A stretch of DNA of 64,000 nt, taken from Candidatus Heimdallarchaeota archaeon (GTDB lineage Archaea; Asgardarchaeota; Heimdallarchaeia; Heimdallarchaeales; Heimdallarchaeaceae). Below the pieces are notes generated by a model, which was not told the origin of the DNA, searched no databases, and saw nothing but the letters and a program-made list of their open reading frames with translations. Within the stretch, counting starts at the first letter, position 1. The number at the start of each line of letters is the position of its first letter. Below, piece after piece: positions 4,609 to 27,802 of the stretch. Where the stretch lies: the NCBI GenBank assembly GCA_030668825.1, contig DAOVET010000004.1, forward strand, positions 296-64,295, given 5' to 3'. Made by a program: the position numbers and the translations under genes.

Positions 4609-4612
4609 ATAT

Positions 4613-7160: not shown

Positions 7161-7274
7161 GACGGTTCTATTCCTAAATTGTATATTTATTAGGTTTTCT
7201 AATATTCCTTCTGTTTCACAAATGATGAGGTTAGATGAAAAGTTTAACAATATGTAATAAAATAACAAAGTTGT

Positions 7275-9230: not shown

Positions 9231-10160
9231 ATGAAATCTTGTTCTTTAGATGGATGTATGGAAAGGGATTCTCTCCCCTTTAAATGCAAATTATGTGGTC
9301 AGATGTACTGTGCTAAACATCGACTACCAGAACAACATAATTGCATACAAATAGGAATCTATCAAACAGATGAATATAAAAAAGCTAAAGTTTCACCACC
9401 TAAACCAGAAAAAAAGGATAAAGTAAAAATAAAGAGATATGGAGAAAGTATATATGGACCAAGAGATTCTGAACGGAAATCAATACAGCTTGAATCTCAA
9501 GACAGATTTATGATGAGGTCATCATTCTTTACACTCTTTGATTTGAAATCAGATTTTATTAATATATTAGTTGCTTCTTTATTGTTTAGTTTATTCTTAG
9601 GGACCCATAGTATAGTCACTAGATCAGTTTATCAAGGAATTCAATTAACACCTCTATATCTATATACAACACTGCTCAATTTTGGTGTTACAGTTTTTAT
9701 TTTCTCAGGATTCTATGCTGTTCAAAAAATGGTTGCAAAACGCATGAAATTAAGATCAGGTGTTACATTATGGCTACAAGGGATTCTTCTTGGCTTGTTC
9801 AGCATTTTTGTACCTATTTTCGTTGTTCCAGCCTTTCTTGTTTTCAGAGATTTCTCTGGAAGTGATAGAGAAAGAGGTATTGTAGCGCTTAGTGGTATTG
9901 TTTGGATGCTGTTCTGGTCAATTGTTTGTCTAGTACTTATGTTTGCAAATGGATTTGAGGTCGTATGGTTATATGCTCTGAAAGAGATACCTATGTTTCT
10001 GCTGCTTTTTTCATTCTTTACTCTATTACCATTTGGTATTTTTACAGGTCGATATATTGCAAGATGGAATAGGAAATTATCATGGAGTCTTGTAGCTTTT
10101 ACTTTTGCTCTATTCATTGTTTATCTAGTGAAATCCTCCAGAATGGCCCCGATATATTAA
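9231..10160 (+). CDS. AN1-type zinc-finger protein fused to a polytopic membrane domain
   Basis: N-terminus 'CSLDGCMERDSLPFKCKLCGQMYCAKHRLPEQHNC' fits the AN1 finger (C-x4-C-x9-12-C-x2-C-x4-C-x2-H-x5-H-x-C). It is followed by a K-rich linker and ~6 predicted TM helices. Confidence 0.65.
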   Translation: MKSCSLDGCMERDSLPFKCKLCGQMYCAKHRLPEQHNCIQIGIYQTDEYKKAKVSPPKPEKKDKVKIKRYGESIYGPRDSERKSIQLESQDRFMMRSSFFTLFDLKSDFINILVASLLFSLFLGTHSIVTRSVYQGIQLTPLYLYTTLLNFGVTVFIFSGFYAVQKMVAKRMKLRSGVTLWLQGILLGLFSIFVPIFVVPAFLVFRDFSGSDRERGIVALSGIVWMLFWSIVCLVLMFANGFEVVWLYALKEIPMFLLLFSFFTLLPFGIFTGRYIARWNRKLSWSLVAFTFALFIVYLVKSSRMAPIY

Positions 10161-11743: not shown

Positions 11744-14700
11744 TTAGAAACGAACTGTAGCAATTTTATATGCATCGAAAAAGGGAATTAAAATTCCATT
11801 TTCAATAAATTCAAAAATTATTGGGAGTCCTTTTTCAATCTTAACATCATCAAGTTCATCAAAGATTCGACTGATTGTCATATTATCTCCATCTGTAATA
11901 TATTCAATTAAACGCTTTTGTAAGCCATTCAATTCTTCAATCTCAGCTTGTTTATATGGAGATACTGTAAATGGATAGAAAATCCATAAATGAATCTCTT
12001 TCATGATTTTTTCAGTTATCCCTTGGAGGTTGATACGAAAGACTTCTGTTGAACCATCCCATTCTTCATTTATATTACTAAACATCTTAGCAAACCAATC
12101 ACTAATAACAGTTAGTTTTTCTTCTATTTCTTCATTTAAGTCTGTTTCTGAAAAAGTGTATAGTGTAAACTGACCAGATTCTGAACCAGCAACTAAGAAA
12201 TTTCTATATTGTAGTCTTTTAACTGATCCTGTTTTATCTCCTCGTAATTCAACTCCCATGGAGGCAATAGCTGTAAGGAAACCTGTAATTAGCGAAGGAT
12301 CCAAAGAGATTTCAGAACCCAGATCCATCTCATAAACAGGTAATCCTGTAGCACTATGAACAATTATCAATTTGGTAATAGATAAAACACTTTCATATAA
12401 ACCATATATTCGTGCAAAAAGTGCTTTTTCAGCTCTTCTATCCTTATCAAGCTTTCTTCTAATAAAGACTGTTAGAGGAGTAACCATTGCAACTAAAGCA
12501 AAAATTCCAATAATTACGAAAATATAAATTGGAATGCCTTCTTCTGGATTAATAATTGATATTGATTTGATTAGTTGATTAGATTTTGTTTCGTATCCTG
12601 TTTTATTTATTGTAACAAAGATGTTAATACTGGTTTCTTGAGGTTCGAATATTCTAAAAGTTACTGAATATAATCCTAGATTTTCAGTTTGTTGAATTAT
12701 CTCTGCATCTTCTGCTTGTAAATCCAGTGAGATATTAAAACTTGCCTCTGGAATATTTTCTGGATTAATGGTATCAACATAATAAAATGTGATTGTTGTT
12801 TCATTACCCCAATGAACTTCATCATCTGAAGATACAATATCTATAGTCGTGGGTGTAGTGAGAATTTCTAAATTGACAGTGGTTGTTGCATTTTCTTGTC
12901 CATAATTAACAATGAAATCTTGTTTTGAAACAGAAATTCTTATTGAATAAGAACCCGGTACTAAATCTCGTCCTTCTCTACCACTAAATAACTCTAATTG
13001 GATTAGACTTGTAACAGCAAATTCTGTCACAACATATTCTGTTGTTTTAATTAGCATTTCATCAAGATAGAAGGCTATTTCATCAGGAATCACAGGACTA
13101 CTGGAATTCGATGTATCTTCAACAGTGAATTGAACATAAGACTCTTGATCACTATAATAAGCTTCAAAATCCCCTCCAGCTGAAGGTGTAATTGTAAAAG
13201 TATGAAAAACACGCACGTCAAATGTGAATGTATGAGTTTCCAAATATATTCCAGTTGCCATAAGCGTAATTGAATAATTTCCAACCACTGCATTTATTAG
13301 AATATTTGTTTCATAGTATGGACCAATATAGCTAAAAAAGCCAGATGTTCCCCATGAAGTATTGTATGCAACTGGAGCTGCTTTTATTGGTGTTCCGTCT
13401 TCTGAATAGAATGGATCGCTAACATTATTATAATAGATTTTTGCTTTAACAGATTCTTGGTTAATTCTATCTATTGAGATAGAGGAATTAGTAAAATCAG
13501 AACTCCCCAAGGTTTCTTCCCAAAAGAAAGAAGCAGTGGTTGATTTACTGACTGAAATTCTTAAAGTGTAAAATCCTACTTCTGTTCCATTTTGCCACAA
13601 ACAAACTGCAGTCCAATCTCCCTCAATATCAGTTCCATTGATGGATGGATCAAAAACTGTATTAATGGAGTATTTTCCAGCACTAATTTGAGTAGTTTCC
13701 AAAACAGTATATGATGTTAAATCTGTGAAAATTATATTGGTGTAATCCGATTCATTTTTTATAGGTACAATAGCACCATTAGGATCATAAAGTGAGAAAT
13801 TAACACTTCCTGTCAAGACATCTTGCATGAAAGAATCTTTTATAAAAATGTCCACTAAGACAGTTGAACCATTATATCCAGTTGCATGAGTTCCATTAGC
13901 CTCCCAGTATCCTAAATTGTAAGAATTTGAATTCAGAGCAGAATCAAACAAATAATTCTGACTAGTGGTTGTAAAATTTAATGAAGCCCCTTGATAAGTA
14001 TCACTAACTAGAAGAGAAGACAAATCAAATGAATAACCTTGAGTATCTTTCCAGCCAGTCATTGGTAGTGATCCGTTTGCTATTAAGCTAAAATCTGAGT
14101 TACTCCAATCATCAGGCGTATAAATGACATGACTTCTATTGGGGTTGGAATAAGAAGAAAAATTAATTGAAGGAATATCCCACGAAAGATTCCAATCTAT
14201 TGAATATTCACTGTGGGATGAATTTGAAACACGGTAATTTGAAACAATATTTAGAGCAATATAGAAAATATAACTATTGTTAAATACTATTCTAACAGAT
14301 TCTGTGGATTCAAGATCATGAATCCCTGTTCCTAAAATTATTTGATTCAAAGATGTAATAGGATCTGAATTATCTTCTAATTCAATATCAGCTGGATTAG
14401 TGAAACTAAGAGGTTCTTGAAATTGATTTAAAGGTAAAAGCTTTGGAGCTAGAGTATAATCTACATTTACAGTACAGTTGTCCCAAGTAGGACCTGATGA
14501 ATCCCATCTATAAGATTCACCTAGAAATGGGGCGCCATTTTTTGATCTCCATGCAAAAGTTTGTGCAGGATCGGTTAAGTCTAAAGTAGATAGATTTGCT
14601 ACAATAAAATATTTTCCCTTATCCAGAATAACATCATCAAAATCATAATAAGTAAGATCAGATGCTGCTGCTGATGGAACAGGATTAGAATTAGTAAAAG

Positions 14701-15376
14701 AGTTATCTGTACAGTTAGATAATATTTTGCTAGAATTTGTTACATCTGGAAAAACAGCACCCTCATCTTTTATAAGAAACAAGTCCAGCTCTACTGTACC
14801 CAGTGATCCAGAACCTATGATATCCAGATAAATATCAGTTCCATAAAATTCTGCATAGTCCCAAGAGATAGTAAACCCTTGAGCTATTGCTAAATATTGA
14901 TCATGGGCTAGTTCGTCATACCCACTTTGAGTAGCTTCAACAACAAAATATTCAGGTATTGATTCTATTTTCTCAATACCATACGCTAGTTGATTAGAGT
15001 ATCCTGCTATATCATCGATTGAAAATTGATTAGAACTCAAGGAAGAATAGGTAGGTTTTGTCAAATTTAGTTCAAATGAATGATAAAGGCCAAGATCATC
15101 GTTTATTGTAAAATCATCACCTGTACCTATATGGTCATCTACTGGTATATATGAGAGATGTGGGAACTTTAAATACTCTCCATTGTTTAGATTGATATTT
15201 GTTGTGAAACTTGAATCTTGTAGCGTATTAGAGTTTAAAGAAAAGTCTGTTGCTTCATAGTAATTTATCCCATAAGAAGCAAGAGCTGGTGATATAAGAA
15301 AAATATACATTAATAGCATACATAGTAATTTATTTTTTATTATTTTATTAGCCATCTGACCAAAAACCCCTTTCAA
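11744..15376 (-). CDS. Giant single-pass surface protein (receptor-like paralog 3): signal peptide, N-glyco-rich ectodomain, TM, cytoplasmic Roadblock-like module
   Basis: 1210 aa. Signal peptide 'LLCMLLMYIFLISPALASYG'. The ectodomain is Asn/Ser/Thr/Tyr-rich with dozens of N-x-S/T sequons. TM 'IPIYIFVIIGIFALVAMVTPLTVFI' is followed by 'RRKLDKDRR' (positive-inside). The cytoplasmic ~230 aa ('ITKLIIVHSATGLPVYEMDLGSE...ITGFLTAIASMG...FTLYTFSE') ends in 'YKIATVRF'. Probable ATG start at M8. Confidence 0.8.
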   Translation of the reverse strand: MKGVFGQMANKIIKNKLLCMLLMYIFLISPALASYGINYYEATDFSLNSNTLQDSSFTTNINLNNGEYLKFPHLSYIPVDDHIGTGDDFTINDDLGLYHSFELNLTKPTYSSLSSNQFSIDDIAGYSNQLAYGIEKIESIPEYFVVEATQSGYDELAHDQYLAIAQGFTISWDYAEFYGTDIYLDIIGSGSLGTVELDLFLIKDEGAVFPDVTNSSKILSNCTDNSFTNSNPVPSAAASDLTYYDFDDVILDKGKYFIVANLSTLDLTDPAQTFAWRSKNGAPFLGESYRWDSSGPTWDNCTVNVDYTLAPKLLPLNQFQEPLSFTNPADIELEDNSDPITSLNQIILGTGIHDLESTESVRIVFNNSYIFYIALNIVSNYRVSNSSHSEYSIDWNLSWDIPSINFSSYSNPNRSHVIYTPDDWSNSDFSLIANGSLPMTGWKDTQGYSFDLSSLLVSDTYQGASLNFTTTSQNYLFDSALNSNSYNLGYWEANGTHATGYNGSTVLVDIFIKDSFMQDVLTGSVNFSLYDPNGAIVPIKNESDYTNIIFTDLTSYTVLETTQISAGKYSINTVFDPSINGTDIEGDWTAVCLWQNGTEVGFYTLRISVSKSTTASFFWEETLGSSDFTNSSISIDRINQESVKAKIYYNNVSDPFYSEDGTPIKAAPVAYNTSWGTSGFFSYIGPYYETNILINAVVGNYSITLMATGIYLETHTFTFDVRVFHTFTITPSAGGDFEAYYSDQESYVQFTVEDTSNSSSPVIPDEIAFYLDEMLIKTTEYVVTEFAVTSLIQLELFSGREGRDLVPGSYSIRISVSKQDFIVNYGQENATTTVNLEILTTPTTIDIVSSDDEVHWGNETTITFYYVDTINPENIPEASFNISLDLQAEDAEIIQQTENLGLYSVTFRIFEPQETSINIFVTINKTGYETKSNQLIKSISIINPEEGIPIYIFVIIGIFALVAMVTPLTVFIRRKLDKDRRAEKALFARIYGLYESVLSITKLIIVHSATGLPVYEMDLGSEISLDPSLITGFLTAIASMGVELRGDKTGSVKRLQYRNFLVAGSESGQFTLYTFSETDLNEEIEEKLTVISDWFAKMFSNINEEWDGSTEVFRINLQGITEKIMKEIHLWIFYPFTVSPYKQAEIEELNGLQKRLIEYITDGDNMTISRIFDELDDVKIEKGLPIIFEFIENGILIPFFDAYKIATVRF

Positions 15377-15477
15377 CTTTATGTTCTGTTCCTTTTGAAA
15401 TGATTACTAGATTATTACTTATAAATTATTAGTTAATATTGGTAAGCTTTTTGATAAAAAATGAGGTTATGAGAAGC

Positions 15478-18400
15478 TCAGAATCGAACAGTAGCGATTT
15501 TGTAGGCATCAAATTCAGGTTCTAGGATGTTAGTTTCAATTAAATCAAAAATTATTGGTAATCCTTGTTCCAATTTAACATCATCAAAATCTTCAAAAAG
15601 ACGACTTATTGTTATAGTGTCACTTTTACCTATATAATCAATCATTCGTTTCCTTATTCCTGACATTTCTTCAATTTCTTTGTTCTTATAGGGTGAAACT
15701 CTGAATGGATAGAATATCCAGAGATGAATCTCTTTCATGATTTTCTCTGTTATTCCTTTAAGGTTTAATCTAAACGGCTCAGTTGAACCATCCCAATCAG
15801 CATCTATTTGTGGAAACATCATGTCAAACCAATCACTAATTACTGTAAGTTTCTGCTCTATTTCTTCATTTAATTCAGACTCTGAAAATGTATAAAGAGT
15901 AAAAAAACCAGATTGTGATGCTGTTACTTGGAATTCTTTGTATTGTACTCTTCTTACACCACCAGATCGTTCTCCTCTCATTTCACTTCCTACTGATGAA
16001 ACAGCTGAAAGGAATCCTGAAATTAATGAGGGGTCTACATCAATCTCTGATCCAAGATCCATTTCATAAACAGGTAAACTTGTCGCTCTGTGAACTATAA
16101 TCAGCTTTGTTATTGATAGTACCCCTTCATAGAAATTGTAAGTTCTTGTGAAAATATCTTTTTGAGCTCTTTTTTCTCGGTTTTTTCTTCGTCTTAATAG
16201 TAAAATCGATGGTGCAATCACAGCTCCTGCGCCAAGAACACCGATTATGATAAAGAGATAAAAAGGCATTTTGGAATCTGGATCAGTTGGAATATTAATC
16301 TGAATGGAAGCAAGTCTAAAATTATCAATTGATTCATAATTTGATACTGAAATTGAAACGAAAACATTCAATGAAGCAACTGTTGGTTGCAGTATTTTTA
16401 CAATTACAGTGTAAACTCCTGCTGATTCAGAGTCTAACCATACTTCTACACCTTCAATATCTACGCTAAGTTCGATTTCAGACTCAGTGAGTCCTGTAAC
16501 CTTTGTAGAATGATCAGTATCCATAACACTGAATTTGAGTTCTGATTGAGTATTAGTATCCATTTCATCTATATCTTGTTCGATAACAATAGCTATTTTG
16601 ATTGGGATAATTTCCAATTGTGGGAACGACAAAGAAGCGCTGTTCTGCCCCATTTCATCAAAGAAATTTGTTTTTGTAACTATAACTTCTATACTGTGAC
16701 TTCCAACCTCAAGACCTAATGATTGTGTATCTAGCTCTATCTCCATTATTCCATCCAAAAGTGAAAGATTGAATTCTTCACTAGTCAAGTTAACGGCATT
16801 AAGTATAACAGTTATTTCCTCAGGATATAGCTGAACACTCATATTTGAGATGTCAATTAATTCAAAACTAATAGCTGTAGGATCTGTATAAGTAATTTGA
16901 CCTGGACTTTGAATCATATTAATCCTAAATATGTGGACAATTTTTACTGGAAATTGCAATGTGTGGTTTTGTAGAAATTGACCATTTGCGAATAATTGAA
17001 CATTCGAGGATCCTTCTGGTGCATTCGTTAATATTTCTGTATCATATGAAGAAGTATTGAAGTTTATTGAACCTGAATCAAACCAACTTGTAGAATATGA
17101 GACTAAAGCAGCTGTTATAGGTGTTCCATTTCCTACAAAAAATGGGTCACTAATATTATAGTAATTCACTCTAATCCTTATACTCTCGCCGCTAATACGA
17201 TTTATTTCTGTACTTGGATTATTAATCCAGATATCACTATCTACTTGTTCTTCCCATTCAAATTCAGCAAATGTAGGTTTTACTACAGTAATCGTTCTAG
17301 CATAGAAGCCTACAGCAGTACCATTAGTCCATTCAGAGGTAACTGTCCAATGGCCTTCAGTGTCGCTTCCATAAACAGAGGGATCAAACGAAGTACTAGC
17401 TGAGTACACTCCAGGACTGGACTGAGAGGATATAATTTGAGAATAGCTAGTTGTATCTACAAATGAGATATTTGAATCAAGATTTGTTTTCATAACTATT
17501 ATTTCACCATCTGGAGAATAAAGTGTAAAGTTTAATTGACCAGTGATGATATCAGAAAGCAAATCTTCCTTAACTGATATCACAGCATCTAAATCAGACC
17601 CGTAATAACCTATAGCATGAGTTGTATTAGTTGTCCAGTACCCTAAATTGAATGTTTCAGAGGATATACTTGAATCATAAAGGTAATTCCTACTAGTTGA
17701 ATAGAATACAAAATCACTTTCGTAATAATTACTGCCATGAAGCAGAACATCTAAATCTAGCGTATGAATATTAATATCTACAGAACTTACAATTGGAATA
17801 GAGTCATTAATTAAGAAAATCTGACTGAGGTTATTCCATCCGTTGGGAATAGTTATCGATTGTAATCGAATTGGATTGGTGTATTGATATATATCAACTA
17901 AAGGAGTAAACCAATTGATACTCCAAGAAATACTGTAATCATAAAAAGAAGAATTGATAGCTGTATAAAATGACTGACCCATAAAAGATCTACTATAAGT
18001 ATATGGATTGTTCATTTCTATATCAACTGAAGTGTTTGAAGTTATTGTATGAATTCCAACTCCACTTATCACTTGGTTAAAAGAGGTTATATCTACTCCA
18101 TCATCTCTCAATTGTACTTCAGCTGGATCCGAGAATCTCATTGCTGTACCATTTGCATATGCAGGAGTTAACTCTGGAGCTAAGACATAATCCTTATTGA
18201 CTAATGAAGACCATACTGAACCATCGTGAGTATACGAATCTGCATAAACTGATCCTTGTTGGCCTCTCCAATTGAAACCATCTCCATCGGTTGCATCATA
18301 GCTAGAAGCATTAGCTACTACATAGTATTTACCTGTTGAAAGAGTTATATCATTAAAATCGTAATAAACCGTATTTCCTGATGTACTTTCATTAATTGGA

Positions 18401-19062
18401 TTCAATACGGTATAAGGTCCATTCGTTGCACTACTCAAGATGGATGACATATCTGGTTTTCCATCGGAGATATTTGCATTGACTATGAATAAATCTAATT
18501 CATCACCGCCAATAGCATTTTCAATGATAAGATAAATTTTAGCACCAGAAAAAATAGCAGTTGGCCATGTTACATCAAAACTCTGAGCTATTCTTATAGT
18601 TGATGAATCAAGAATCTCATCTTTATTCTGAATTGTCTGTTGATAGTCGAAGTACTTGCTTGCAGAAATAGCTGTTATATTATATTGAAGCGAATCTGTG
18701 GTATAATCTGTAATACTAGAAATTGTGTAAGTATCTGAATAACTATTATCTGTATTAAGTGATACATTCACTCCTTGATTAACTTGCAGGTTATCTGAAA
18801 TAATAAAATCATCACCACTCCCATCGGAGTTTGTAATGGGTATGTATGAATATTTCAGTGATTGTTCTAGATTTGGACCTTCCAAACTATTTAGGAACCC
18901 ATTCTGAGAATGAATTAAGTCATCTTCAATGTTTTTGCTATGGTTATTAATTGAAAAAAATCCATTTGAAATACTATTTGATGTGAAAGGTAAAACGGGG
19001 ATGATTATAAAAGCTATGAAGGTTAATGATAAGAGCTTTCTAAATCTGAAATAATTTAACAA
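15478..19062 (-). CDS. Giant single-pass surface protein (receptor-like paralog 2)
   Basis: 1194 aa with the same architecture. Shares conserved ectodomain blocks with its neighbours ('GYWTTNTTHAIGYYGS', 'NFTLYSPDGEI', 'FDPSVYGSDTEGHWT...WTNGTAVGFY'). TM 'FYLFIIIGVLGAGAVIAPSILLL' + 'RRRKNREKR'. Cytoplasmic module ends in the identical 'YKIATVRF'. Confidence 0.8.
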   Translation of the reverse strand: MLNYFRFRKLLSLTFIAFIIIPVLPFTSNSISNGFFSINNHSKNIEDDLIHSQNGFLNSLEGPNLEQSLKYSYIPITNSDGSGDDFIISDNLQVNQGVNVSLNTDNSYSDTYTISSITDYTTDSLQYNITAISASKYFDYQQTIQNKDEILDSSTIRIAQSFDVTWPTAIFSGAKIYLIIENAIGGDELDLFIVNANISDGKPDMSSILSSATNGPYTVLNPINESTSGNTVYYDFNDITLSTGKYYVVANASSYDATDGDGFNWRGQQGSVYADSYTHDGSVWSSLVNKDYVLAPELTPAYANGTAMRFSDPAEVQLRDDGVDITSFNQVISGVGIHTITSNTSVDIEMNNPYTYSRSFMGQSFYTAINSSFYDYSISWSINWFTPLVDIYQYTNPIRLQSITIPNGWNNLSQIFLINDSIPIVSSVDINIHTLDLDVLLHGSNYYESDFVFYSTSRNYLYDSSISSETFNLGYWTTNTTHAIGYYGSDLDAVISVKEDLLSDIITGQLNFTLYSPDGEIIVMKTNLDSNISFVDTTSYSQIISSQSSPGVYSASTSFDPSVYGSDTEGHWTVTSEWTNGTAVGFYARTITVVKPTFAEFEWEEQVDSDIWINNPSTEINRISGESIRIRVNYYNISDPFFVGNGTPITAALVSYSTSWFDSGSINFNTSSYDTEILTNAPEGSSNVQLFANGQFLQNHTLQFPVKIVHIFRINMIQSPGQITYTDPTAISFELIDISNMSVQLYPEEITVILNAVNLTSEEFNLSLLDGIMEIELDTQSLGLEVGSHSIEVIVTKTNFFDEMGQNSASLSFPQLEIIPIKIAIVIEQDIDEMDTNTQSELKFSVMDTDHSTKVTGLTESEIELSVDIEGVEVWLDSESAGVYTVIVKILQPTVASLNVFVSISVSNYESIDNFRLASIQINIPTDPDSKMPFYLFIIIGVLGAGAVIAPSILLLRRRKNREKRAQKDIFTRTYNFYEGVLSITKLIIVHRATSLPVYEMDLGSEIDVDPSLISGFLSAVSSVGSEMRGERSGGVRRVQYKEFQVTASQSGFFTLYTFSESELNEEIEQKLTVISDWFDMMFPQIDADWDGSTEPFRLNLKGITEKIMKEIHLWIFYPFRVSPYKNKEIEEMSGIRKRMIDYIGKSDTITISRLFEDFDDVKLEQGLPIIFDLIETNILEPEFDAYKIATVRF

Positions 19063-19169
19063 TAGCTTACATCTCTGTTATTCTAACAGACTAATAATAT
19101 CTTCTAACTTAAATTATTTTTCTATTTTACAGTGATTTTCAGCTGAATTTATGTCTGTTAAGGGATTTT

Positions 19170-22100
19170 CTATCCTTTGAATGAAGAGAATTGATTTCGG
19201 AGCAGTATTCCTTTATTGACTAGTCTGAATATAGATGTAAGATTATCTTCCATTTCATAATCGCTGAATTTCTTAAGTAAGACACTGATAGATGTTTCTT
19301 CTTTTTTCTTGACAAATTCTGCAATTCTTTGATCATGTTTCTCCAGTTTTTTTATTTCACCTGATTTTTGTTTGTTAAATTTGAGAGGGAAGTAAATCCA
19401 TAGATAAAGAGATTCTGAAACCTTATCTTCAATGAGTTTCTTCTTAGAACCGAACACTTCTTTCTTTCCATCCCACACTTTTCCTTTGGTTTTGAAACTA
19501 TATTCAAACCACATTATCAAGTCAAACAACCTTACTTGAAATTCCTTTATGACTTCATTTGAAGAGAAGAGAAAAACTGTATAGGTTTCTGAACTAGCGC
19601 CTGTAACAACAAAATTCCTATATTCGAGTCGTTTAATTTCTCCAGTATCACTACCTCCAAGGGTTTTGCCCATGGTTTCGATAGCACCCAGAAAACCTAA
19701 TACAAGAGCGGTTTCTATTGCATGTTCACTTCCTATATCTAACTCAAATACAGGTAAGCTAGTTTCAGAATGAATAAATAATATTTTTCGCATAGAAAGA
19801 ACACTATCTAGCAACCCTACTACTTTAGCTTTACTCTGCACATCTACAATTGGAGCTTTGGATTTCCTGGATCTTGGAATTGCTATTACAGCTATTAAAA
19901 GAGTTATTAGGAGAATACCCCCAACAACTATGATAATTATGAGATAAGGGGGAAGTTGTTCAGTTGTTTTGACTTTAACTGTGTACTCAAAACTACTCTG
20001 TTCATCAACATATCCAGCTCTGAAGTTTGCTTTAGAAACAGTCACGTTTACTTTGTGTGTTCCTGAGGTTTGCATACTCATTGTTAATACAACCCAATCT
20101 CCATCGATAGTCTGCTCGTAAAAACCTTCAGCTATAAGTACATCATTGATATAGACACTGACATCATCAGGATAAATGACACTCTGCAATGGATCTGTCA
20201 TATTCAATAATTTGAACCTTAGAACTGCTTCATCAGTAGAATTAATCTCAATAGAATCCTGATCTACAACTAATGAGAACAAGTTGAAAACTTCTAGATT
20301 TAGTTGTATCTTCCTGGATTTGCACTGCGAGCTAGAAGCTTCCAAAGTTATTGTATGAAAACCCGCATCAATATCTATTGGAACTGTTGAATTGAAAAAT
20401 ATTCCATTCTCACTAAAATTACTAGAAAGACCCCAACTTGTAGTATAAGAAACAGTTGCATTTACTAATGCTTGCCCCATACTACCAAAGAAAGGTTCAC
20501 TTATAGAGTAGAAATCTGAGCGAGCTCTTAACGAATCACTGTTCATCCTTAAGATTGTATTTGAGGTAATATAGGTCCATACATCACTATTTGGAAGTGT
20601 TTCCCAAGAAGGATTGAAAACTATCTCAGTTTCAACAAATATTTTTTTAGCAAATAAACCAGCTTGAGTACCATTGGTCCAATAAACAAAAGCTGTCCAT
20701 TCACCGGTCATATCAGATCCATATACAGATGGATCAAAAGTTAAGTTTGAGGTGTATAATCCCGAACCACTAGAGAATATTCCATTCTTTGTATACGAAG
20801 AAATATCAATATACGAGAGGTTTGAGGGAAGAGCTATCTTTTGAGGTAAAATATTTCCATTTGGATCAAACAAAGTTACATTTATACTTCCAGTATCCTC
20901 ATTATTCTGAATATTAATCTCGAAATTCACTGTTGAACCTTCATTTCCATATGCATCGATAGTATCAGTAGTCCAGTATCCTAAAGAGAAGATATCTGCT
21001 GGTCCGGAATCATCTGAAAGAATCAGTTGTTGAACATAATTAAGACTCGTAGTTTCTAATCTAAATGTTCCTGCAGAAATATTAAATCCATAATTAACTA
21101 AATATCCATCAATCGTTTTCTGAGAGCTAAGGATATCAGTATCATTATAATAACAAGTAGAACTATCAGACCAGTCAGTAGGAGTGAATATTAAACTGGA
21201 TCTTTCCATACTAGGGTAGGGAGAATAATCAGCTTCTGAAGTTGACCATTGTAATGTCCATATATTAGAGTAAATACCAGATGTTGAATTGATTGCTGTA
21301 AAAGAAGTATCAACTGTCACATCTTTTGAAAAAGAATAAGAATTATTGAACACTAACTCCACTGAAGTATCACAGCTAAGCAAATGAAAACCAGTAGTAG
21401 AAATTGGAGATGTGGTTGTTAGAACATCTGAAGAATTATCTTGCAAAGCTATTTGGTTTAAATCACTAAAAGTCACTGCTGTTCCATTATCATAACTTGG
21501 AAGAAGTTGAGGAATAAAGGTATGATCTACCAATTTGAGGTTCCAAACACCAGAATTGTCCAAATAATACGTATCACTGTCTAGTGGTGCAGTACTATAA
21601 CTATACCAACGGAAATTCCATGGACTTCCAGCAACTGTCAGATTTGCAACTACAAAATATTTTCCGTTTTCTAAAACTATATCTGTGAAATCATAGAATG
21701 GGAGATTATCAATAGTACTAAAAGGAAAAGGATTAGCATTTGTATATGGACCATGAACATCACTGGAATAGATATAGGACATATTTGGTTTACCTGTTAG
21801 TTCATCAGCTTTTACAAGAAACAGCTCCAACTCTGTTGTACCAACATTCCCATCATCATCAAAAAAAAGTTTAGCACCTGAAAACACTGCATAATCCCAA
21901 TTTATATCGAAACTTTGAGCTATAGCCCATCTAGAAAAAGTATCACCTATCTCTATTGGTGTATCTCCTTCAATTTCTATTGGATACAAATCAGTTTTTG
22001 CAGTGATGCTTGAAATATTATAATTAAGTCTAAAAGGGTCATAACCTGTGATTGTATCAATCGTATAATTATCTTCAAATTGCTCACTTGTTACATTGTA

Positions 22101-22364
22101 AGAAAGGTTAAGAGTTTGATAGTCATTTACAGTTAGAACATCTTTCCCTGATAAACTACTTCCTACTCCAGATACATTAGTGATTGGAGTGTAAAGAAGT
22201 TCAGTTTCAGAAATAGAGATAGGATTATATTGTTCTAAAGTTATAATATCATTTTTCTCTTGAGAGTCTGATTTAGAAACAAGTTGTTCTTGATAAATTG
22301 ATAAACTAAGCACTATAAGAAACACAACAGAATAAATTTTGACTTTATGCGCTACTCTTTGCAT
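19170..22364 (-). CDS. Giant single-pass surface protein (receptor-like paralog 1)
   Basis: 1064 aa. Signal peptide; the ectodomain has the same conserved blocks ('GYWTTDTIDAYGNEGS', 'NVTLFDPNGNI', 'FDPSVYGSDMTGEWT...WTNGTQAGLF'). TM 'LIIIIVVGGILLITLLIAVIAI' + 'PRSRKSK'. Cytoplasmic module 'KILFIHSETSLPVFELDIGSE...LGFLGAIETMG...YTVFLFSSNE'. Confidence 0.8.
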   Translation of the reverse strand: MQRVAHKVKIYSVVFLIVLSLSIYQEQLVSKSDSQEKNDIITLEQYNPISISETELLYTPITNVSGVGSSLSGKDVLTVNDYQTLNLSYNVTSEQFEDNYTIDTITGYDPFRLNYNISSITAKTDLYPIEIEGDTPIEIGDTFSRWAIAQSFDINWDYAVFSGAKLFFDDDGNVGTTELELFLVKADELTGKPNMSYIYSSDVHGPYTNANPFPFSTIDNLPFYDFTDIVLENGKYFVVANLTVAGSPWNFRWYSYSTAPLDSDTYYLDNSGVWNLKLVDHTFIPQLLPSYDNGTAVTFSDLNQIALQDNSSDVLTTTSPISTTGFHLLSCDTSVELVFNNSYSFSKDVTVDTSFTAINSTSGIYSNIWTLQWSTSEADYSPYPSMERSSLIFTPTDWSDSSTCYYNDTDILSSQKTIDGYLVNYGFNISAGTFRLETTSLNYVQQLILSDDSGPADIFSLGYWTTDTIDAYGNEGSTVNFEINIQNNEDTGSINVTLFDPNGNILPQKIALPSNLSYIDISSYTKNGIFSSGSGLYTSNLTFDPSVYGSDMTGEWTAFVYWTNGTQAGLFAKKIFVETEIVFNPSWETLPNSDVWTYITSNTILRMNSDSLRARSDFYSISEPFFGSMGQALVNATVSYTTSWGLSSNFSENGIFFNSTVPIDIDAGFHTITLEASSSQCKSRKIQLNLEVFNLFSLVVDQDSIEINSTDEAVLRFKLLNMTDPLQSVIYPDDVSVYINDVLIAEGFYEQTIDGDWVVLTMSMQTSGTHKVNVTVSKANFRAGYVDEQSSFEYTVKVKTTEQLPPYLIIIIVVGGILLITLLIAVIAIPRSRKSKAPIVDVQSKAKVVGLLDSVLSMRKILFIHSETSLPVFELDIGSEHAIETALVLGFLGAIETMGKTLGGSDTGEIKRLEYRNFVVTGASSETYTVFLFSSNEVIKEFQVRLFDLIMWFEYSFKTKGKVWDGKKEVFGSKKKLIEDKVSESLYLWIYFPLKFNKQKSGEIKKLEKHDQRIAEFVKKKEETSISVLLKKFSDYEMEDNLTSIFRLVNKGILLRNQFSSFKG

Positions 22365-22472
22365 GTAAGAAACCCCACATTTAATGACCTATATTCAATA
22401 TTTGAAAGTTAATTTATTATTTATATCTATGTAAAGTAGCAATTAAACGATTTTTATTTGTACTTCTAAAGT

Positions 22473-23174
22473 TCATACTTTATTTCTATCAAGTTCGAAA
22501 AATGTTTGAGTATACTGATCAGATATACTGGTTATAACAAATTCTTTCTCAACAAGTTTGAATATTATCCCTAATGCTTCATTTACTGGATATTTCTTCA
22601 AATCGTCTAATAATCTCATTATTGAGGTTTGCTTATTTTCTGCAAAATGTGTTAATATATCTCTTAATATCATACTCTCGCTTTCGATTTCTGCAAGCTT
22701 GCGAATATCTATTTCGAGTGGGTAGAGCAACCACAGATGGAACAGATTAGTTATTTTGTCCATTATACTTATTTTGTAATAATCAGAAAATTCTTCGGAA
22801 TACTCTCCTTCTGAACTATCAAAACCAAAAACTAAATCAAACCATTTTACTAATTCTACGATACTTTTTTCGAGATCACTCTGCAAATCTCGTTCAATGA
22901 ATAGATAAGCTGTGTATGGCCCATAACTTGTAGTTAAAACAATGAAACCATAATACTTTATTTTTGTTATATCAGCTGTTGAACTGATTTTCTCAACTTG
23001 AGTAGAATCTTGTGTCTGTAAAACATCGCAGATAAGAGAAGGGTCAAGGTTAACCTGGCTATTTAAGTCCATTTCAAAAACTGGTAAACACTGTTCATGT
23101 TGAACTACAAGTAATTTTCTTACCATGAAAACATCTTGAAGTATTATTTCGTAGTTCAACACCAGCTCTACCAC
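22473..23174 (-). CDS. Standalone soluble copy of the receptor cytoplasmic (Roadblock-like) module
   Basis: 233 aa. 'KLLVVQHEQCLPVFEMDLNSQ...DPSLICDVL...YTAYLFIERD...LWLLYPLEID' is collinear with the cytoplasmic domains of the three giant proteins and with ORF 163-1239. Confidence 0.7.
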   Translation of the reverse strand: MVELVLNYEIILQDVFMVRKLLVVQHEQCLPVFEMDLNSQVNLDPSLICDVLQTQDSTQVEKISSTADITKIKYYGFIVLTTSYGPYTAYLFIERDLQSDLEKSIVELVKWFDLVFGFDSSEGEYSEEFSDYYKISIMDKITNLFHLWLLYPLEIDIRKLAEIESESMILRDILTHFAENKQTSIMRLLDDLKKYPVNEALGIIFKLVEKEFVITSISDQYTQTFFELDRNKV

Positions 23175-23662
23175 TTTATTTCTCTTAAATTATAATATAC
23201 TTCTTTACATATTTTAAAATTGTTCAAGTGACCATCAAACCATTAATGTTAAATATTTCCGAATGTATCTTATATTTGAAAGGAAATGAGTAAAATTGGA
23301 AAGTTTGTCTCTAATTTTTTACTAAAGATGTTTCCTCAAACCCCACCAGAGTTTCAAACTGAAGAAAGAAGAGACTTTGAGAAAGGTGGAAGGCAATTTA
23401 GAGGTATAAAAGGTAAGAAAGATAAAATTGCGATGATTGAGGGAGTATTCAAAAGAAACTCAGGGAACTAAAACTGATTTTTTCTCAACCTATCAAATAA
23501 TAACCTATCTTTTTGTATAGTCTCCCTTATTGGAAGAAGACCTTTAGATAAACTCATCAAAAGATTAAAAATTAGTGAAGACCTCAAGAATCTCTTCAAT
23601 CATTTTCTCTGATTCAAAGGGAGTTTTTGGGAAAAAAAGATTGGAAAGAAAATTTTGAATCT

Positions 23663-24793
23663 TTAGTTCTTCCTTTTCTTTCTAAATCTCAAACTTAAAG
23701 CTAAAATACCTATAGCCAAGACAATGTAGATAGATGAAGAAAATGAACTATCTAATATCTCTTCAACTTCACCTAGACCTGTAAATACTGGAATAGCATC
23801 AAGAGGGTACAAATCTTCTGAAGTTGTGAGACCACCTATTTGATATGATCCAATTCCACTCCAGTCGTCCCAATAATTCCCTTCATTGCTCTCATTATCA
23901 TACCAAGTGTTTGATGAGCCTTCATCCTCTGCTTGAGAAGTACCTAGTAAATTGTTATCTATAAACGCATTATGATGGATTTTATTTTTACTTGCTATGT
24001 TACGTAGGTATATACCATATTCAGTATTGTTAACAAGTGTATTATACATCAAGTTGTTATTTTGGGCATCAAACAATCTTATACCATATTCTAAATTATT
24101 TGCACAAGTGTTATTAGCTACTGTACAGTCTGAAGCTGTCCCTAGACTTATCCCTTCTGTACTCTCTGCTAATGTATTGTTTACTATTGTACAATCATTG
24201 GTTTGATACAGAGAAATTCCTTTTATTGTATTTTGGTAACAGAGATTTTCCATGATTACAGAACCATCTGCTGTGTCTAGATAAATTCCATACATTGCTC
24301 TAACAATAGTATTCCTTTCTACTAGGAGATTATAACCGAATCTGATTTCCAATCCATAACCTGTACTCTCATAAATATAATTATTAATAACATCACAAGC
24401 ACCTTTGTTAACTCTTTTTATGGTGATACCGTCACCCATAGTTTGAACAAAGCAATTTTGTATAGTAAAATACTTCTTTACGTTATCAATCAATATTCCT
24501 GGAGTTCCAAATTCATCTGATGTTATATTATAGTTTTGAATTAGATATGGATCTTCTTCAGTTCCTGAACCAGGGAATCCATAATCTGTGAAATTTGCGT
24601 CGTTGATTATTTCTATTACTTCATGAGGAATCAATCCTTCAGGTATTGGCGGTATAACTACTGAAATATTCCAGTTTTCCTGTCTGCTATCTGGTTTTGC
24701 TAAACAAATCTCACTAGAGGCTAAGGAGAAAAGGATAATGCAAAATAATAATCCAGATAGGAATTTAAGTTTGTTTTTTCTTTCTTTATACAT
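23663..24793 (-). CDS. Surface-anchored right-handed parallel beta-helix (pectate-lyase-fold) repeat protein
   Basis: Signal peptide 'LLFCIILFSLASSEICLA'. Repeated ~22-aa PbH1-like units ('NNTLAESTEGISLGTASDCTVANNTCANNLEYGIRLFDAQNNNLMYNTLVNNTEYGIYL'). C-terminal TM anchor 'IYIVLAIGILALSL' plus basic tail 'RFRKKRKN'. Confidence 0.7.
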   Translation of the reverse strand: MYKERKNKLKFLSGLLFCIILFSLASSEICLAKPDSRQENWNISVVIPPIPEGLIPHEVIEIINDANFTDYGFPGSGTEEDPYLIQNYNITSDEFGTPGILIDNVKKYFTIQNCFVQTMGDGITIKRVNKGACDVINNYIYESTGYGLEIRFGYNLLVERNTIVRAMYGIYLDTADGSVIMENLCYQNTIKGISLYQTNDCTIVNNTLAESTEGISLGTASDCTVANNTCANNLEYGIRLFDAQNNNLMYNTLVNNTEYGIYLRNIASKNKIHHNAFIDNNLLGTSQAEDEGSSNTWYDNESNEGNYWDDWSGIGSYQIGGLTTSEDLYPLDAIPVFTGLGEVEEILDSSFSSSIYIVLAIGILALSLRFRKKRKN

Positions 24794-24940
24794 TTCATTA
24801 CTTCCCTATAGTAATCTTTAGTTAACGAAAACTTGCTATTTAAGCGTTATGTGCTAAAAAATGGTTTTCTACTTGAAAACTTTAATATTTTTATTTCTCC
24901 CTAGTTAGAATTTTGAAAAATAATATTTCGATTCAATTTT

Positions 24941-25789
24941 GTGGATTTCTTGGATTTTTATATCAATGGTCAAAAAAATTATAATTGTTCAAACAAAAAA
25001 GCAAATGATTCTATGAAAGATAGACAAAGATTCCTTCTTGTATTAACAATTTGTACTTGGATAATTGGAAGCATTATTGGGATTGTATTTGTATTTGTAA
25101 TGTTGGATGATATCTCAGGCTTAGAATGGTTTGGTAGCCCAACATTTGGAATGGTAATTCTTATAGTGTTGATGACTAGTTTTTATCTTGTCTTTAGAAA
25201 AAAGAATCTTCAACCAACTATAATTGTTATAATTTGGTTCTTCTTTCTCTTTATAGCTACTACTGTGTGCATGGTTGCTTTTGCATATCATGACCTAGGC
25301 CAATGGGAAGATTTTCAAACTATGCCCTTGTTGGGAACTTTCCTTTTAATTCTATGGGCAGCAGGAGTGCATTTTAGTTTAAAAAATGTAGAAAGAAAAT
25401 CACTATATATTTTCACTCTTTGGACCGTAGAATTCTTTCTAACTGTATTATTTACTATGATAGCATTAGCTTATGGACCTCTTAGAATGTGGGAAGATTG
25501 GCAACCTTATCCAATTATGGGAATAGGGATATGGGCAGGTCTCATTACAATCGCATACTTTGCAATTAGAAGTTCATCTATTTCATGGATCGATGCAGGA
25601 TTTTACTGGTCATGGTCTATGTTCATTGGCATAACAACAAGCATGTTGAGTGTTTTCATAGTGTTACTAGATTATACAAATTTATGGCCTATTTATCCTA
25701 TAGCTGGAACATTAGGATTTGCAGCTTTATTTACCACGTTGAAATTTACTTTGAAAAAATCAAATGTGAATGAAAAACTGAAGGAGTAA
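24941..25789 (+). CDS. Polytopic membrane protein with internal repeats
   Basis: ~8 TM helices. A repeated unit contains 'HDLGQWEDFQTMPLLG' / 'GPLRMWEDWQPYPIMG' / 'NLWPIYPIAG'. Confidence 0.5.
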   Translation: MDFLDFYINGQKNYNCSNKKANDSMKDRQRFLLVLTICTWIIGSIIGIVFVFVMLDDISGLEWFGSPTFGMVILIVLMTSFYLVFRKKNLQPTIIVIIWFFFLFIATTVCMVAFAYHDLGQWEDFQTMPLLGTFLLILWAAGVHFSLKNVERKSLYIFTLWTVEFFLTVLFTMIALAYGPLRMWEDWQPYPIMGIGIWAGLITIAYFAIRSSSISWIDAGFYWSWSMFIGITTSMLSVFIVLLDYTNLWPIYPIAGTLGFAALFTTLKFTLKKSNVNEKLKE

Positions 25790-26002
25790 AATGGTTGCAC
25801 ATTTCAATTCTGAAATTATGAGATGTCTTGGAAGACCTTAAGTCAACCATTGTAATTTCAGATTAGAAATGACATCAAAATCCCACAATAATTCCAATAA
25901 ACTTAAGATTTGTATTTACCTTTTAAAATCTAAAGAATAAAATTGGAATATTGATGCTTCTAACTTTGTTATTCTAATAACATTTGGTTAGGGTGATCTA
26001 GT

Positions 26003-27802
26003 TTGACTGAAACAGTGCTAAAAGAATTGCTTCGCGTAGAACAATTAATTGTTGAAGAAGATAATAATACTGCATTAGAACTTGTAAGAAAGATTTCCAA
26101 AAGAGAGGGGTTGTCTAATGAAGATAAGCTTGCTTGTACTCTACTAGAATCTCGAATTGATTTTAAACTAGGTGAAAGAGAAAAAGTACTTAAAAAAGCT
26201 GAGAAAATTTGGCCAACAATTCGTAAACTAGAAAATCCATTATTTATTTTGGATTATTTAATAATTAAAACGAATGCTTCTTGGATTAGGGGTGAATTTG
26301 ATAGTGGCATCAAAGTATTTGAAGAGCACTTGGAGTTAATTGAAGAATTACAAAAAAAAGTGCCCAAAAATAATGAGATACGTTTCAAGATAAGAAGAAG
26401 TGAATTTCTGCGAAATGGTGGCATCTTATATTGGTATAAGGGTGAACTTGATACCTCTCTAGAAATTCATAAACAAAGTTTAGCTTTTGGTGAAGAGATT
26501 AACAATAAAACTTCCATTGCAGGTTCTTATAATAATATGGGTCTTGTTTATTGGTCAAAAGGTAATATCGATAAATCAATTGAGTATTACAATCGTTCTT
26601 TGAGCCTCTTTGAGGAGTTAGGGATGAAACAAAAAGCTGCGGGTATTTTGACAAATTTAGGCAATGCATACTCAATAAAAGGGGATCTTGACAAAGCATT
26701 AGAAACTCAGCAACGTAGTTTGGAAATTAAAAAGAAATTTAGTAATAAGGGACTAATAGCTGTTTCACTTATCAATATAGGAGTAATATTTCAATTGAAA
26801 GGTGAACTCGACAAAGCACTAGACTATTATCAAGAAGGATTGTTACTAAGTGAAGAAATAGATTCCAAGTCTAATATCGCTCTCGCCCTAAATAACATCG
26901 GTAATATATTTGATTTAAGAGGCAATCCCAATTTAGCCATAGAGTATTATGAACGAAGCTTGAACCTTTACGAAGAGATTGGTATTAAAGATAAGGTTGC
27001 CTTATTACTCGTTAATATTGGCGCCAATTGTAGACAAAAGGGCAATATTAAAGAAGCATTTGATTATTTTAATCAAAGTTTAATAATTTATGAAGAAATA
27101 GGGAATAATTTGGGTTCCTCAGTAGTTCTTCTTGAACTTGTACAGGAAACACTTGAACAAAATGATCAGGAATTAATTCAAGAATATTTGGAAAAATTAG
27201 AGCAAATCAATAAATCTGAAAACATTCGTTTAATTGATCAACGTTTCCGTTTAGCAAAAGCGCTTTCACTTAAGGATAGTAGTCAATCTCGCATCAAAAC
27301 AAAAGCAATAGTAATGTTTGAACAAATCATTGAAGAAGAAATCATAGATCATTCACTAACTGTTAAAGCAATGGTTCACCTAAGTGATTTGTTGATAAAA
27401 GAATTAAAACAAACAGCAGAATTTGAGTTATTAGAAGAGATTAAGGAATTAGTACAAAAACTTCAGGAAATTGCTGAAGAACAATCATCCAATTCGATTC
27501 TTGCAGAAATATACAGATTGGAAGCATTGCTAGCTTTAGCAGAGCTTGATTTGAAGGAAACTAGGCAGTTATTACAAAAAGGTCTTGTTCTTGCTGAGGA
27601 AAAAGGTCTTGAGAGCATTGCATCAAATATACGTGAAGAACAGAATAGATTAACAGAACAAATTAAACTGTGGGAAGAACTTCAAAAACGAAAAGCTCCA
27701 TTAAAAGAAACATTACAATACATAAAAATAGAGGAATCTATGAAACAGTTACAACATGAAGAAACAGTCACATCCAGGAAATTATTTTCATTAAAGATTT
27801 AG
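26003..27802 (+). CDS. TPR-repeat protein
   Basis: At least 7 consecutive 40-aa TPR_12-type repeats ('AGSYNNMGLVYWSKGNIDKSIEYYNRSLSLFEELG', 'AAGILTNLGNAYSIKGDLDKALETQQRSLEI', ...) followed by a coiled-coil C-terminus. TTG start. Confidence 0.8.
   Translation: MTETVLKELLRVEQLIVEEDNNTALELVRKISKREGLSNEDKLACTLLESRIDFKLGEREKVLKKAEKIWPTIRKLENPLFILDYLIIKTNASWIRGEFDSGIKVFEEHLELIEELQKKVPKNNEIRFKIRRSEFLRNGGILYWYKGELDTSLEIHKQSLAFGEEINNKTSIAGSYNNMGLVYWSKGNIDKSIEYYNRSLSLFEELGMKQKAAGILTNLGNAYSIKGDLDKALETQQRSLEIKKKFSNKGLIAVSLINIGVIFQLKGELDKALDYYQEGLLLSEEIDSKSNIALALNNIGNIFDLRGNPNLAIEYYERSLNLYEEIGIKDKVALLLVNIGANCRQKGNIKEAFDYFNQSLIIYEEIGNNLGSSVVLLELVQETLEQNDQELIQEYLEKLEQINKSENIRLIDQRFRLAKALSLKDSSQSRIKTKAIVMFEQIIEEEIIDHSLTVKAMVHLSDLLIKELKQTAEFELLEEIKELVQKLQEIAEEQSSNSILAEIYRLEALLALAELDLKETRQLLQKGLVLAEEKGLESIASNIREEQNRLTEQIKLWEELQKRKAPLKETLQYIKIEESMKQLQHEETVTSRKLFSLKI

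Follow-up and report, generated by a model that had tools for sequence, protein, structure and literature searches.

The locus described here raises the question of what is done inside the cell by three giant surface proteins that are encoded in tandem and carry related domains at their cytoplasmic ends. It lies on contig DAOVET010000004.1 (assembly GCA_030668825.1), of which forward positions 296 to 64,295 were analysed (64,000 nt, G-C content ~32%; this whole stretch is called the window below), and its host is a Heimdallarchaeon of the AB_125-like clade. An earlier note, made from the sequence alone, had described five minus-strand open reading frames (ORFs) here, and all of them were present: A (11744-15376), B (15478-19062), C (19170-22364), D (22473-23174) and E (23663-24793). 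The preferred answer, to which a probability of about 0.5 was given and which leans on analogy with characterized systems, is that A, B and C are variable coat or adhesin glycoproteins, and that their cytoplasmic module, comprising a longin-like domain and a winged helix (wH), would form a membrane-proximal platform for docking or regulating small GTPases.

The three giant genes were paralogs of a single architecture, as the note had proposed. A encodes 1210 aa, or probably 1203 aa from the ATG at 15355; the latter start is the likelier because a database protein that is 100% identical to A (P0155) is 1203 aa long. B encodes 1194 aa and C 1064 aa. Hydropathy analysis of each protein identified one N-terminal hydrophobic segment and one strong transmembrane (TM) helix followed by an R/K cluster. 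In A, the signal-like segment occupied residues ~8-33, with a putative cleavage site, picked by eye, between SPALA and S; the ectodomain, including this segment, comprised residues 1-946 (12539-15376, minus strand), and the TM helix (residues 947-972, 12461-12538, minus strand) had a 19-aa Kyte-Doolittle peak of 2.67 and was followed by RRKLDKDRR. The corresponding parts of B were an ectodomain at 16270-19062, a TM helix at 16195-16269 (residues 932-956) and a cytoplasmic module at 15481-16194, and those of C were placed at 19947-22364, 19875-19946 (residues 807-830) and 19173-19874 respectively. Comparison of the paralogs showed that C was without the final ~100-aa, membrane-proximal domain of the ectodomain.

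The ectodomains were packed with N-x-S/T sequons, numbering 27 in A, 22 in B and 23 in C. This amounted to 2.4-2.9 per 100 aa, against a background of 0.57 per 100 aa in the other ORFs of the window, an excess of ~4-5 fold (Poisson P = 5e-8 to 3e-11), while the cytoplasmic parts of the same proteins had only 0-1 sequon each. Since the excess was found only N-terminal to the TM helix, it gave independent support to an N-out/C-in topology and to the glycoprotein nature of the family. On sequence grounds there is thus good support for A, B and C as type-I glycoproteins anchored in the membrane at the cell surface, with export and N-glycosylation being predicted. They resembled archaeal surface glycoproteins in being putatively secreted and N-glycosylated, rich in beta structure and anchored in the membrane near the C-terminus.

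An AlphaFold2 (AF2) model of full-length B was all-beta across residues ~78-921, with a predicted local distance difference test score (pLDDT) mostly of 70-90 from residue ~300 onwards and lower values in the distal 300 residues. The modelled ectodomain matched only generic Ig-like or beta-sandwich stalk domains, such as those of filamin, titin, SlaB, OST48 and macroglobulin; the beta-sandwich nature of the A ectodomain was carried over from this paralog. Nothing similar to a known enzyme domain was seen in the B ectodomain model or in domain scans, and no sensor or ligand-binding domain (PAS, CACHE, Cache-like or periplasmic binding protein) was found in the ectodomains through Pfam, NCBIfam or structural matches. 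Judging from the model, the most fitting picture of the ectodomain is a stalk of Ig-like domains, glycosylated and variable in its distal part. Nor did Pfam or NCBIfam scans place A-C in any curated family; a match to a well-characterized S-layer or adhesin family with a described cytoplasmic anchor was an outcome that the note had named as speaking against its proposal.

The ectodomains of A, B and C shared 31-36% identity (BLASTP E = 1e-97 to 2.5e-156), in agreement with a visual estimate of 30-40%, and the conserved blocks quoted from them previously were recovered in a three-way alignment (LGYW..T..A.G..GS, N.TL..P.G.I and FDPS..G.D..G.WT ... W.NGT..G). The cytoplasmic module had been thought better conserved than the ectodomain. 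Among the paralogs this held only for A and B (68% identity for the module, 36% for the ectodomain); the values were 37% and 31% for A and C, and 31% and 36% for B and C. Recent gene conversion between the tails of A and B was considered and rejected, as they had 72% nucleotide identity with a longest exact run of 21 nt.

Among orthologs in other genomes the module was much better conserved than the ectodomain. Orthologs of A were 42-59% identical in the ectodomain but 79-89% in the tail; the values for B were 52-68% and 75-87%, and for C, 43-87% and 64-87%. Divergence was graded along the length of A orthologs, with identities of 18-44% over the first 450 aa, 50-66% over the membrane-proximal half and 76-88% over the tail, of which the last 10 residues, ending in YKIATVRF, were 100% conserved. 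Housekeeping genes flanking the arrays were 94-97% identical between the same genomes. Divergence of ~50% of amino acids between orthologous ectodomains is saturated for estimates of dN/dS. Taken as a sequence pattern, the hypervariability of the distal ~450 aa favours a coat, adhesin, virus-target or recognition protein over a conserved ligand-binding receptor, with viruses or syntrophic partners as the likely source of pressure on the ectodomain.

The idea with which this locus was introduced, that each paralog is an outside-in receptor sensing a different extracellular ligand and signalling through a common module, fared unevenly against these data. What stood was the shared type-I, receptor-like layout of diverged ectodomains over a conserved inner module, which was predicted to fold in the manner of GTPase-associated domains and which also occurs fused to GTPases (both described below); moreover, the longin/roadblock fold participates in signalling with membrane sensors in the actinobacterial conservons CvnA-D (PMC13343842, PMC13621833). 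What lacked support was the sensing part. The ectodomains had no recognizable ligand-binding or sensor domain, a distal identity of only ~52% where neighbouring genes retain 94-97% would be unusual for receptors with a defined ligand, and no kinase, cyclase or other output domain was present (HisKA/HATPase, MCPsignal, Pkinase and GGDEF were all missing from A, B and C in Pfam and NCBIfam scans). An outside-in receptor was thus judged distinctly unlikely.

The evidence that distinguishes these proteins from ordinary surface glycoproteins came from their cytoplasmic ends. An AF2 model of the A tail, built on a shallow alignment of only the four copies in the window, had a mean pLDDT of 81.5 and a predicted template modelling score of 0.77; three of five models exceeded 76 and two were poor. 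It began with a juxtamembrane helix, continued with a longin/roadblock-like domain in beta-beta-alpha-beta-beta-beta-alpha order and a short helical linker (residues 1000-1133, 11978-12379, minus strand), and finished with a winged-helix-like subdomain of H-b-H-H-b-b order (residues 1149-1210, 11747-11932, minus strand). The model contained the five-stranded antiparallel sheet, in beta-beta-alpha-beta-beta-beta-alpha(-alpha) order, by which the longin/roadblock fold is recognized. Its best structural matches were the N-terminal domains of AP-3, AP-4 and AP-2 mu (scores ~10), Roadblock2 of Prometheoarchaeum (9.7), Sec22b (9.7), a Lokiarchaeal longin domain (9.4), MglB (8.7) and the C-terminal domains of Lokiarchaeal Rag-like GTPases (8.5), along with SRX, sedlin/TRAPP subunits, Mon1, Ccz1 and NPRL3. 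Foldseek, an independent method, returned zeta-COP, Bet5, MP1/p14, AP2 sigma, MglB and sedlin, each with a probability of 1.0. Because no solved chain covered more than ~140 of the 224 module residues, the combination of longin and wH is without a solved counterpart. The model therefore supports a folded, conserved module over a disordered tail, which the structure prediction suggested by the note might have revealed instead, and supports placing this module in the longin/roadblock (LC7) superfamily on the basis of its predicted fold alone.

Across 97 aligned modules the signature consisted of G-L-x-[VI]-[YF]-[ED] at beta2 and D-x-x-L-[IV]-S-G-F-L-x-A-I-x-x-x-G-x-E in helix alpha1, with further conservation at Y72, G123, F128 and P150. 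The soluble copy that had been noticed upstream of the giants proved to be a true relative: D encodes 233 aa with 0 TM helices and 0 sequons, is 27-31% identical to the modules of A-C (E = 1e-25 to 1e-34) and has orthologs in two related loci (L003 and L005) that are 90-94% identical to it. It diverged in helix alpha1, where it was without the near-invariant G47 and A51. The same two residues, part of the SGFLxAI motif typical of TM-anchored copies, were consistently missing from soluble D-type paralogs (D, P0012 and P0035). This pattern suggests that D-type proteins are specialized, possibly non-catalytic partner subunits, and since D differs exactly in the near-invariant helix alpha1, it recalls the pairing of catalytic and non-catalytic longin proteins elsewhere. 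A further soluble relative was encoded outside the array, at 163-1239 on the plus strand (358 aa). Its longin part (residues 12-131) and wH part (residues 238-289) were separated by a ~100-aa insertion, it displayed the signature GVPIFDY ... D..LVSGLLTAI..F..E, and it was recovered with the family hidden Markov model (HMM) by hmmsearch (E = 2.7e-13), while a Pfam scan of it gave no match.

The phyletic survey was made by exhaustive HMMER search of 1.84 billion representatives of clusters at 50% identity, word-indexed homolog searches being nearly blind to the family (5, 7 and 8 matches). It returned 274 representatives of the module at E <= 1e-3, of which 37 reached E <= 1e-30. Of 12 clusters with an organism name, 11 were Asgard (Heimdallarchaeota/-aceae, Hodarchaeota, Helarchaeota, Lokiarchaeota, Odinarchaeia and Promethearchaeota), and the named clusters were all either 'hypothetical' or named just for their other domains. 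It is well supported by these sequence comparisons that the module defines a largely Asgard-restricted family without curated annotation in Pfam or NCBIfam. The sole named member outside Asgard, P0140 of the cluster 'Thermofilum sp. ex4484_82', was a partial match (profile positions 9-171, E = 3e-6) and could reflect either mis-binning of a contig or the genuine presence of the family in Thermoproteota.

Among the best 150 of the 274 representatives, the module was nearly always C-terminal and in ~100 cases a TM helix lay <= 70 aa upstream of it; the regions N-terminal to the module ranged from 0 to 2600 aa and were rich in sequons (up to 92). Since 73 of 96 ectodomains were connected by detectable homology, the distribution was interpreted as one large family of surface proteins, rather than a cassette hopping between unrelated proteins. 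Other architectures included stand-alone soluble modules of ~210-260 aa, arrays of PCI or winged helix-turn-helix (wHTH) domains joined to the longin part, leucine-rich repeats (LRR) with the module and FG-GAP with the module.

The winged-helix-like end of the module raised a separate possibility, that A-C are membrane-tethered transcription regulators freed by proteolysis in the manner of Notch or of regulated intramembrane proteolysis. Beyond the wH subdomain in the model, this could draw on soluble relatives in which the longin part is paired with HTH_24/MarR-type wHTH arrays, one of them annotated as a transcriptional regulator. Yet the wH was acidic, with a net charge of -5 in A, -5 in B and -3 in D, and the putative recognition helix was not basic across the family (mean -0.6); PCI-type wH domains, which bind protein, were equally common among the relatives, and no protease partner was found. 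This possibility was therefore considered very improbable. Because of their acidity, the wH subdomains of A, B and D are most likely protein-protein adaptors instead of DNA binders.

To our knowledge, longin/roadblock domains form homo- or heterodimeric platforms that bind small GTPases in every characterized system, acting as GTPase-activating proteins (GAPs), guanine nucleotide exchange factors (GEFs) or scaffolds; MglB, LAMTOR2/3 in Ragulator (PMC5696360), Mon1-Ccz1, TRAPP, NPRL2/3 and CvnB of the conservons (PMC13343842) are examples. Fusion to GTPases was found within the module family itself. P0058 consisted of a Ras-family GTPase (Pfam E = 1.2e-49) followed by the module, and it belonged to a contig (L016, Logan SRR25621648) with two such GTPase-module genes, 400 bp apart, at 3311-4687 (plus strand) and 5109-6476 (minus strand). 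These fusions had a Rag-like layout, made with the longin-wH module of the array family.

Because longin/roadblock domains behave in this way elsewhere, and because the module is fused to Ras-family GTPases, it is proposed that the tails of A-C dimerize and dock GTPases. The module would dimerize with itself, with other tails or with soluble D, and the dimer would provide a platform on the cytoplasmic side of the plasma membrane, where Ras/Rab-like small GTPases, or the GTPase-module fusion proteins, would be docked or regulated, with the wH of A, B and D acting as protein adaptor. An exposed, diversifying coat or adhesin might thereby be coupled to GTPase-controlled processes, such as cytoskeletal activity, membrane remodelling or cell-cell contact. 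Information could run outside-in, as through a receptor, or inside-out, through positioning or clustering of the surface proteins.

A candidate GTPase partner was also present in the window, 4.5 kb from the array and on the same strand (6597-7160). It encodes a Rab/Ras-like protein of 187 aa (Pfam Ras E = 3.7e-33, with additional matches to Roc, Arf and Gtr1_RagA), the 187-aa form fitting its orthologs where a longer ORF (6597-7622) was over-extended, and it was 33% identical to the GTPase domain of P0058. Synteny of this gene with the array was preserved in close relatives (L001, L005, L006, L007 and L013), and four unrelated genes separated the two in the window. The gene beside it (5614-6534) encodes a 306-aa protein that matched nothing in Pfam; it has a single TM helix at the N-terminus and a K/E/R-rich, highly basic tail.

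Several observations weigh against this proposal. No GTPase gene occurred near the arrays in L008-L011, L017 and L018, and given the abundance of GTPases in Asgard genomes, the Rab-like gene may lie close to the array by coincidence. A conserved operon with a GTPase was rejected on the grounds that GTPase genes were not consistent neighbours of the arrays. Fusions to GTPases were rare, being limited to a single protein among the 150 best representatives and to one paralog, and a search for P-loops by regular expression across 154 proteins (those 150 with four close homologs) found no others. The longin assignment itself rests on one AF2 model built from four sequences, and the cytoplasmic part was modelled with low confidence in full-length B (pLDDT < 50 at residues 950-1090). 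Neither A-D nor 18 diverse members of the family matched the Pfam models Longin, Robl_LC7, Sybindin, Sedlin_N or Clat_adaptor_s at E <= 1; no NCBIfam family was found for A-D; phmmer and a profile of the 18 members produced nothing relevant among PDB sequences; and alignment of the family profile with approximate sequences of LAMTOR2 and Sec22b by hhalign had a probability < 1%. Given the shallow alignment, the low-confidence B tail and the insignificant hhalign result, the assignment was made at the level of fold only. Finally, no arginine column reached 60% across the 97 aligned modules, and no Gly-Pro motif was conserved before beta2. A GAP mechanism by arginine finger, of the FLCN/NPRL2 type, was rejected for this reason.

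Matches of A-D to DUF805, BEACH and Imm6 in Pfam and NCBIfam were sub-threshold and judged to be noise. The Pfam scan of the 18 diverse modules gave scattered sub-threshold matches only, several of them to wH-type families.

If GTPases are set aside, A-C might be structural anchors of a non-crystalline, S-layer-like coat, in which the module serves only to link the stalks into lateral oligomers or to attach them to the cytoskeleton. Heavy predicted glycosylation and tandem paralogs would suit such a role, as would the gelsolin gene nearby (see below) and the inconsistent proximity of GTPase genes, and cultured Asgard cells possess an amorphous, proteinaceous surface layer with no lattice (bioRxiv 10.1101/2025.11.06.686947). 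However, a plain anchor would need neither a strongly conserved, two-domain module of 225 aa nor co-encoded soluble copies, and the module is found in soluble proteins and in GTPase fusions as well. The tails of known archaeal S-layer anchors are short or absent; the stalk protein SlaB of Sulfolobus and the S-layer proteins of Methanosarcina with their PKD domains, for instance, have no sizeable cytoplasmic domain, which in A-C makes up ~20% of the protein. A purely structural role was considered rather unlikely.

Another possible role of the module is in sorting or trafficking. The module would be recognized by, or act like, machinery of the coat/adaptor or SNARE type, and would steer the proteins towards particular parts of the membrane, protrusions or vesicles. 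A Heimdall-group culture is reported to contain intracellular vesicles, and the invariant C-terminal YKIATVRF resembles a short linear motif, but there were no coat, SNARE or adaptor genes in the neighbourhood, and this role was held to be improbable. The YKIATVRF ending (11747-11770 in A, 15481-15504 in B) was identical in A, B and all of their orthologs examined, and did not occur in C or D, so that the claim that two of the three giants share it was correct. From its conservation, it may be a short linear interaction motif.

Returning to the platform for small GTPases, the system would work, by analogy, most like Ragulator-Rag or the MglB/conservon systems, where a membrane-attached roadblock platform meets a GTPase, with an exterior like that of an archaeal S-layer stalk. 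In Ragulator, roadblock dimers anchored by LAMTOR1 dock Rag GTPases through the C-terminal roadblock domains of the latter (PMC5696360, PMC5680233). The anchor there is a lipidated scaffold on an organelle, whereas the array proteins have a TM helix beneath a glycosylated ectodomain of 900 aa; LAMTORs are without a wH domain and have no sequence homology to the array module, whose binding of GTPases is proposed by analogy. Conservons comprise a membrane sensor (CvnA), a roadblock protein (CvnB), CvnC and a Ras-like GTPase (CvnD), and are described together with MglA/MglB (PMC13343842, PMC13621833, PMC4316618). They differ in being separate proteins of one operon with a sensor like a histidine kinase, while in A-C the membrane protein itself carries the roadblock/longin fold, there is no kinase-like domain and no GTPase gene lies within the array.

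Longin/roadblock proteins of Asgard archaea, and Rag-like fusions of GTPases with longin/roadblock domains, have been described previously (Tran et al. 2024, PMC10933270; Liu et al. 2020 preprint; PDB 9jq8, 8yqg, 8yl2). Those proteins are either soluble or joined to domains of GTPases, ESCRT or two-component systems, unlike the TM-anchored copies reported here, which had no significant similarity to the Pfam Longin or Robl_LC7 models. A TM-anchored longin copy under a large ectodomain was not described in the searchable text of PMC10933270, the Liu et al. 2020 preprint, PMC12290439 or PMC10936438. With no curated family covering the module and no description in the literature that could be searched as text, the statement that the architecture does not belong to a described signalling family was borne out. 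The combination of Asgard longin/roadblock proteins and archaeal surface glycoproteins in one type-I family is apparently undescribed.

Longin GAPs of the FLCN/NPRL2/SMCR8 type possess a Gly-Pro motif before beta2 and a catalytic arginine finger (PMC12290439). The wider group of longin GAPs and GEFs (FLCN-FNIP, GATOR1 NPRL2/3, C9orf72-SMCR8, Mon1-Ccz1 and TRAPP) has the longin fold in common with the array module, and NPRL3, Mon1, Ccz1 and TRAPP subunits were among its structural matches. The likeness extends to a G-L-P/x motif where beta2 begins in the array module (G26 was conserved in 67% and L27 in 78% of the 97 modules, the following proline in < 60%), and to the TM-bound and soluble D paralogs, which recall catalytic/non-catalytic heterodimers; the array module is without the DENN or other C-terminal domain of those proteins. 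The longin SNAREs Sec22, Ykt6 and VAMP7, and the SRX domain of SRalpha on TM-anchored SRbeta, likewise place a longin fold at the cytoplasmic face of a membrane, and Sec22b and SRX were among the top structural matches. Longin SNAREs are tail-anchored, with an N-terminal longin domain and no ectodomain, whereas the array family has type-I topology and no SNARE motif.

Asgard archaea have dozens of small GTPases together with longin/roadblock proteins, yet in most of those in culture internal membranes are sparse or lacking. The A-C family provides a concrete handle on what this machinery does at the plasma membrane: a longin-type module on the tails of exposed, fast-evolving glycoproteins is a testable physical link from the cell surface to the GTPase system, in a family of at least 274 clusters at 50% identity across metagenome-assembled genomes (MAGs) of the Heimdall, Hod, Loki, Hel and Odin groups. 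A broader version of the proposal would see here an archaeal precursor of the way in which eukaryotes connect transmembrane surface proteins with small-GTPase machinery. Engagement or clustering of the ectodomain by partner cells, viruses or substrates would be read out by the longin-wH dimer, which would recruit or switch Rab/Arf/Rag-like GTPases, and these would locally drive cytoskeleton-dependent remodelling (protrusions, contact sites or uptake-like invagination). This was regarded as an unlikely extension; if true, it would mean that the expanded GTPase/longin repertoire of Asgard archaea was at work at the plasma membrane and the cell surface before there were endomembranes. Defined constructs for the study of binding, GAP or GEF activity are offered by the 225-aa module, soluble D and the neighbouring Rab-like GTPase. 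The module is a domain family missing from Pfam and NCBIfam, and A-C are candidates for major surface antigens, and for virus- or partner-recognition proteins, of newly cultured Heimdall-group strains.

The closest loci, in a scan of one genome per species, came only from 'Candidatus Heimdallarchaeota' MAGs, including AB_125, and one 'Promethearchaeati' MAG. Two or three giants were maintained in tandem at these loci; B was missing from L003, and B and C were disrupted in L005. Wherever the contig included the stretch upstream of the giants (L003, L005 and L013), one or two soluble module genes were present, and a second type of soluble module was seen in L003, L005, L013 and L014; most of the arrays examined thus had D-like soluble copies encoded beside them. 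Tandem copies also occurred on a Hodarchaeota contig. In more distant genomes the flanks were different, with metabolic genes of the xanthine-dehydrogenase type, and so the giants and the soluble modules constitute the sole conserved unit.

The gaps separating D, C, B and A (22365-22472, 19063-19169 and 15377-15477) were ~100 nt each and AT-rich, with TATA-like runs. Because of these runs, and on sequence alone, A-D may each have their own promoter instead of forming one operon. A run of T followed the stop codon of B (15469-15464). Scanning the window for Rfam families and tRNA genes found none.

E had been grouped with the array as a surface beta-helix protein. The description was accurate, since the 376-aa product matched NosD (E = 8.9e-30) and Beta_helix (E = 1.6e-25) in Pfam, corresponding to a parallel, right-handed beta-helix, and had a signal-like N-terminus and a C-terminal TM anchor. 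The grouping was not. An indel hot spot adjoins the array, such that window positions 23175-27802, containing E and the genes for a 282-aa multi-TM protein and a 599-aa TPR protein, correspond to L003 1613-2929, where a single soluble module gene of the second type stands in place of all three. As the whole segment was replaced in this way, E was rejected as a component of the system.

A defence-system or viral origin for the locus was dropped, as PADLOC and PHROG models gave no match. About 3.6 kb upstream of E, at 28396-29079 on the plus strand, the window encodes a 227-aa protein with two gelsolin repeats (Pfam Gelsolin E = 2e-19) that was 96% identical in L003; gelsolin is a eukaryotic-signature actin regulator. 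Two other genes, encoding a ThiF/E1-like enzyme (29722-30972, minus strand, Pfam E = 1.2e-55) and a zf-AN1 protein whose C-terminal half is multi-TM (9231-10160, plus strand), may be related to the ubiquitin system, genes of which are typical of Asgard genomes.

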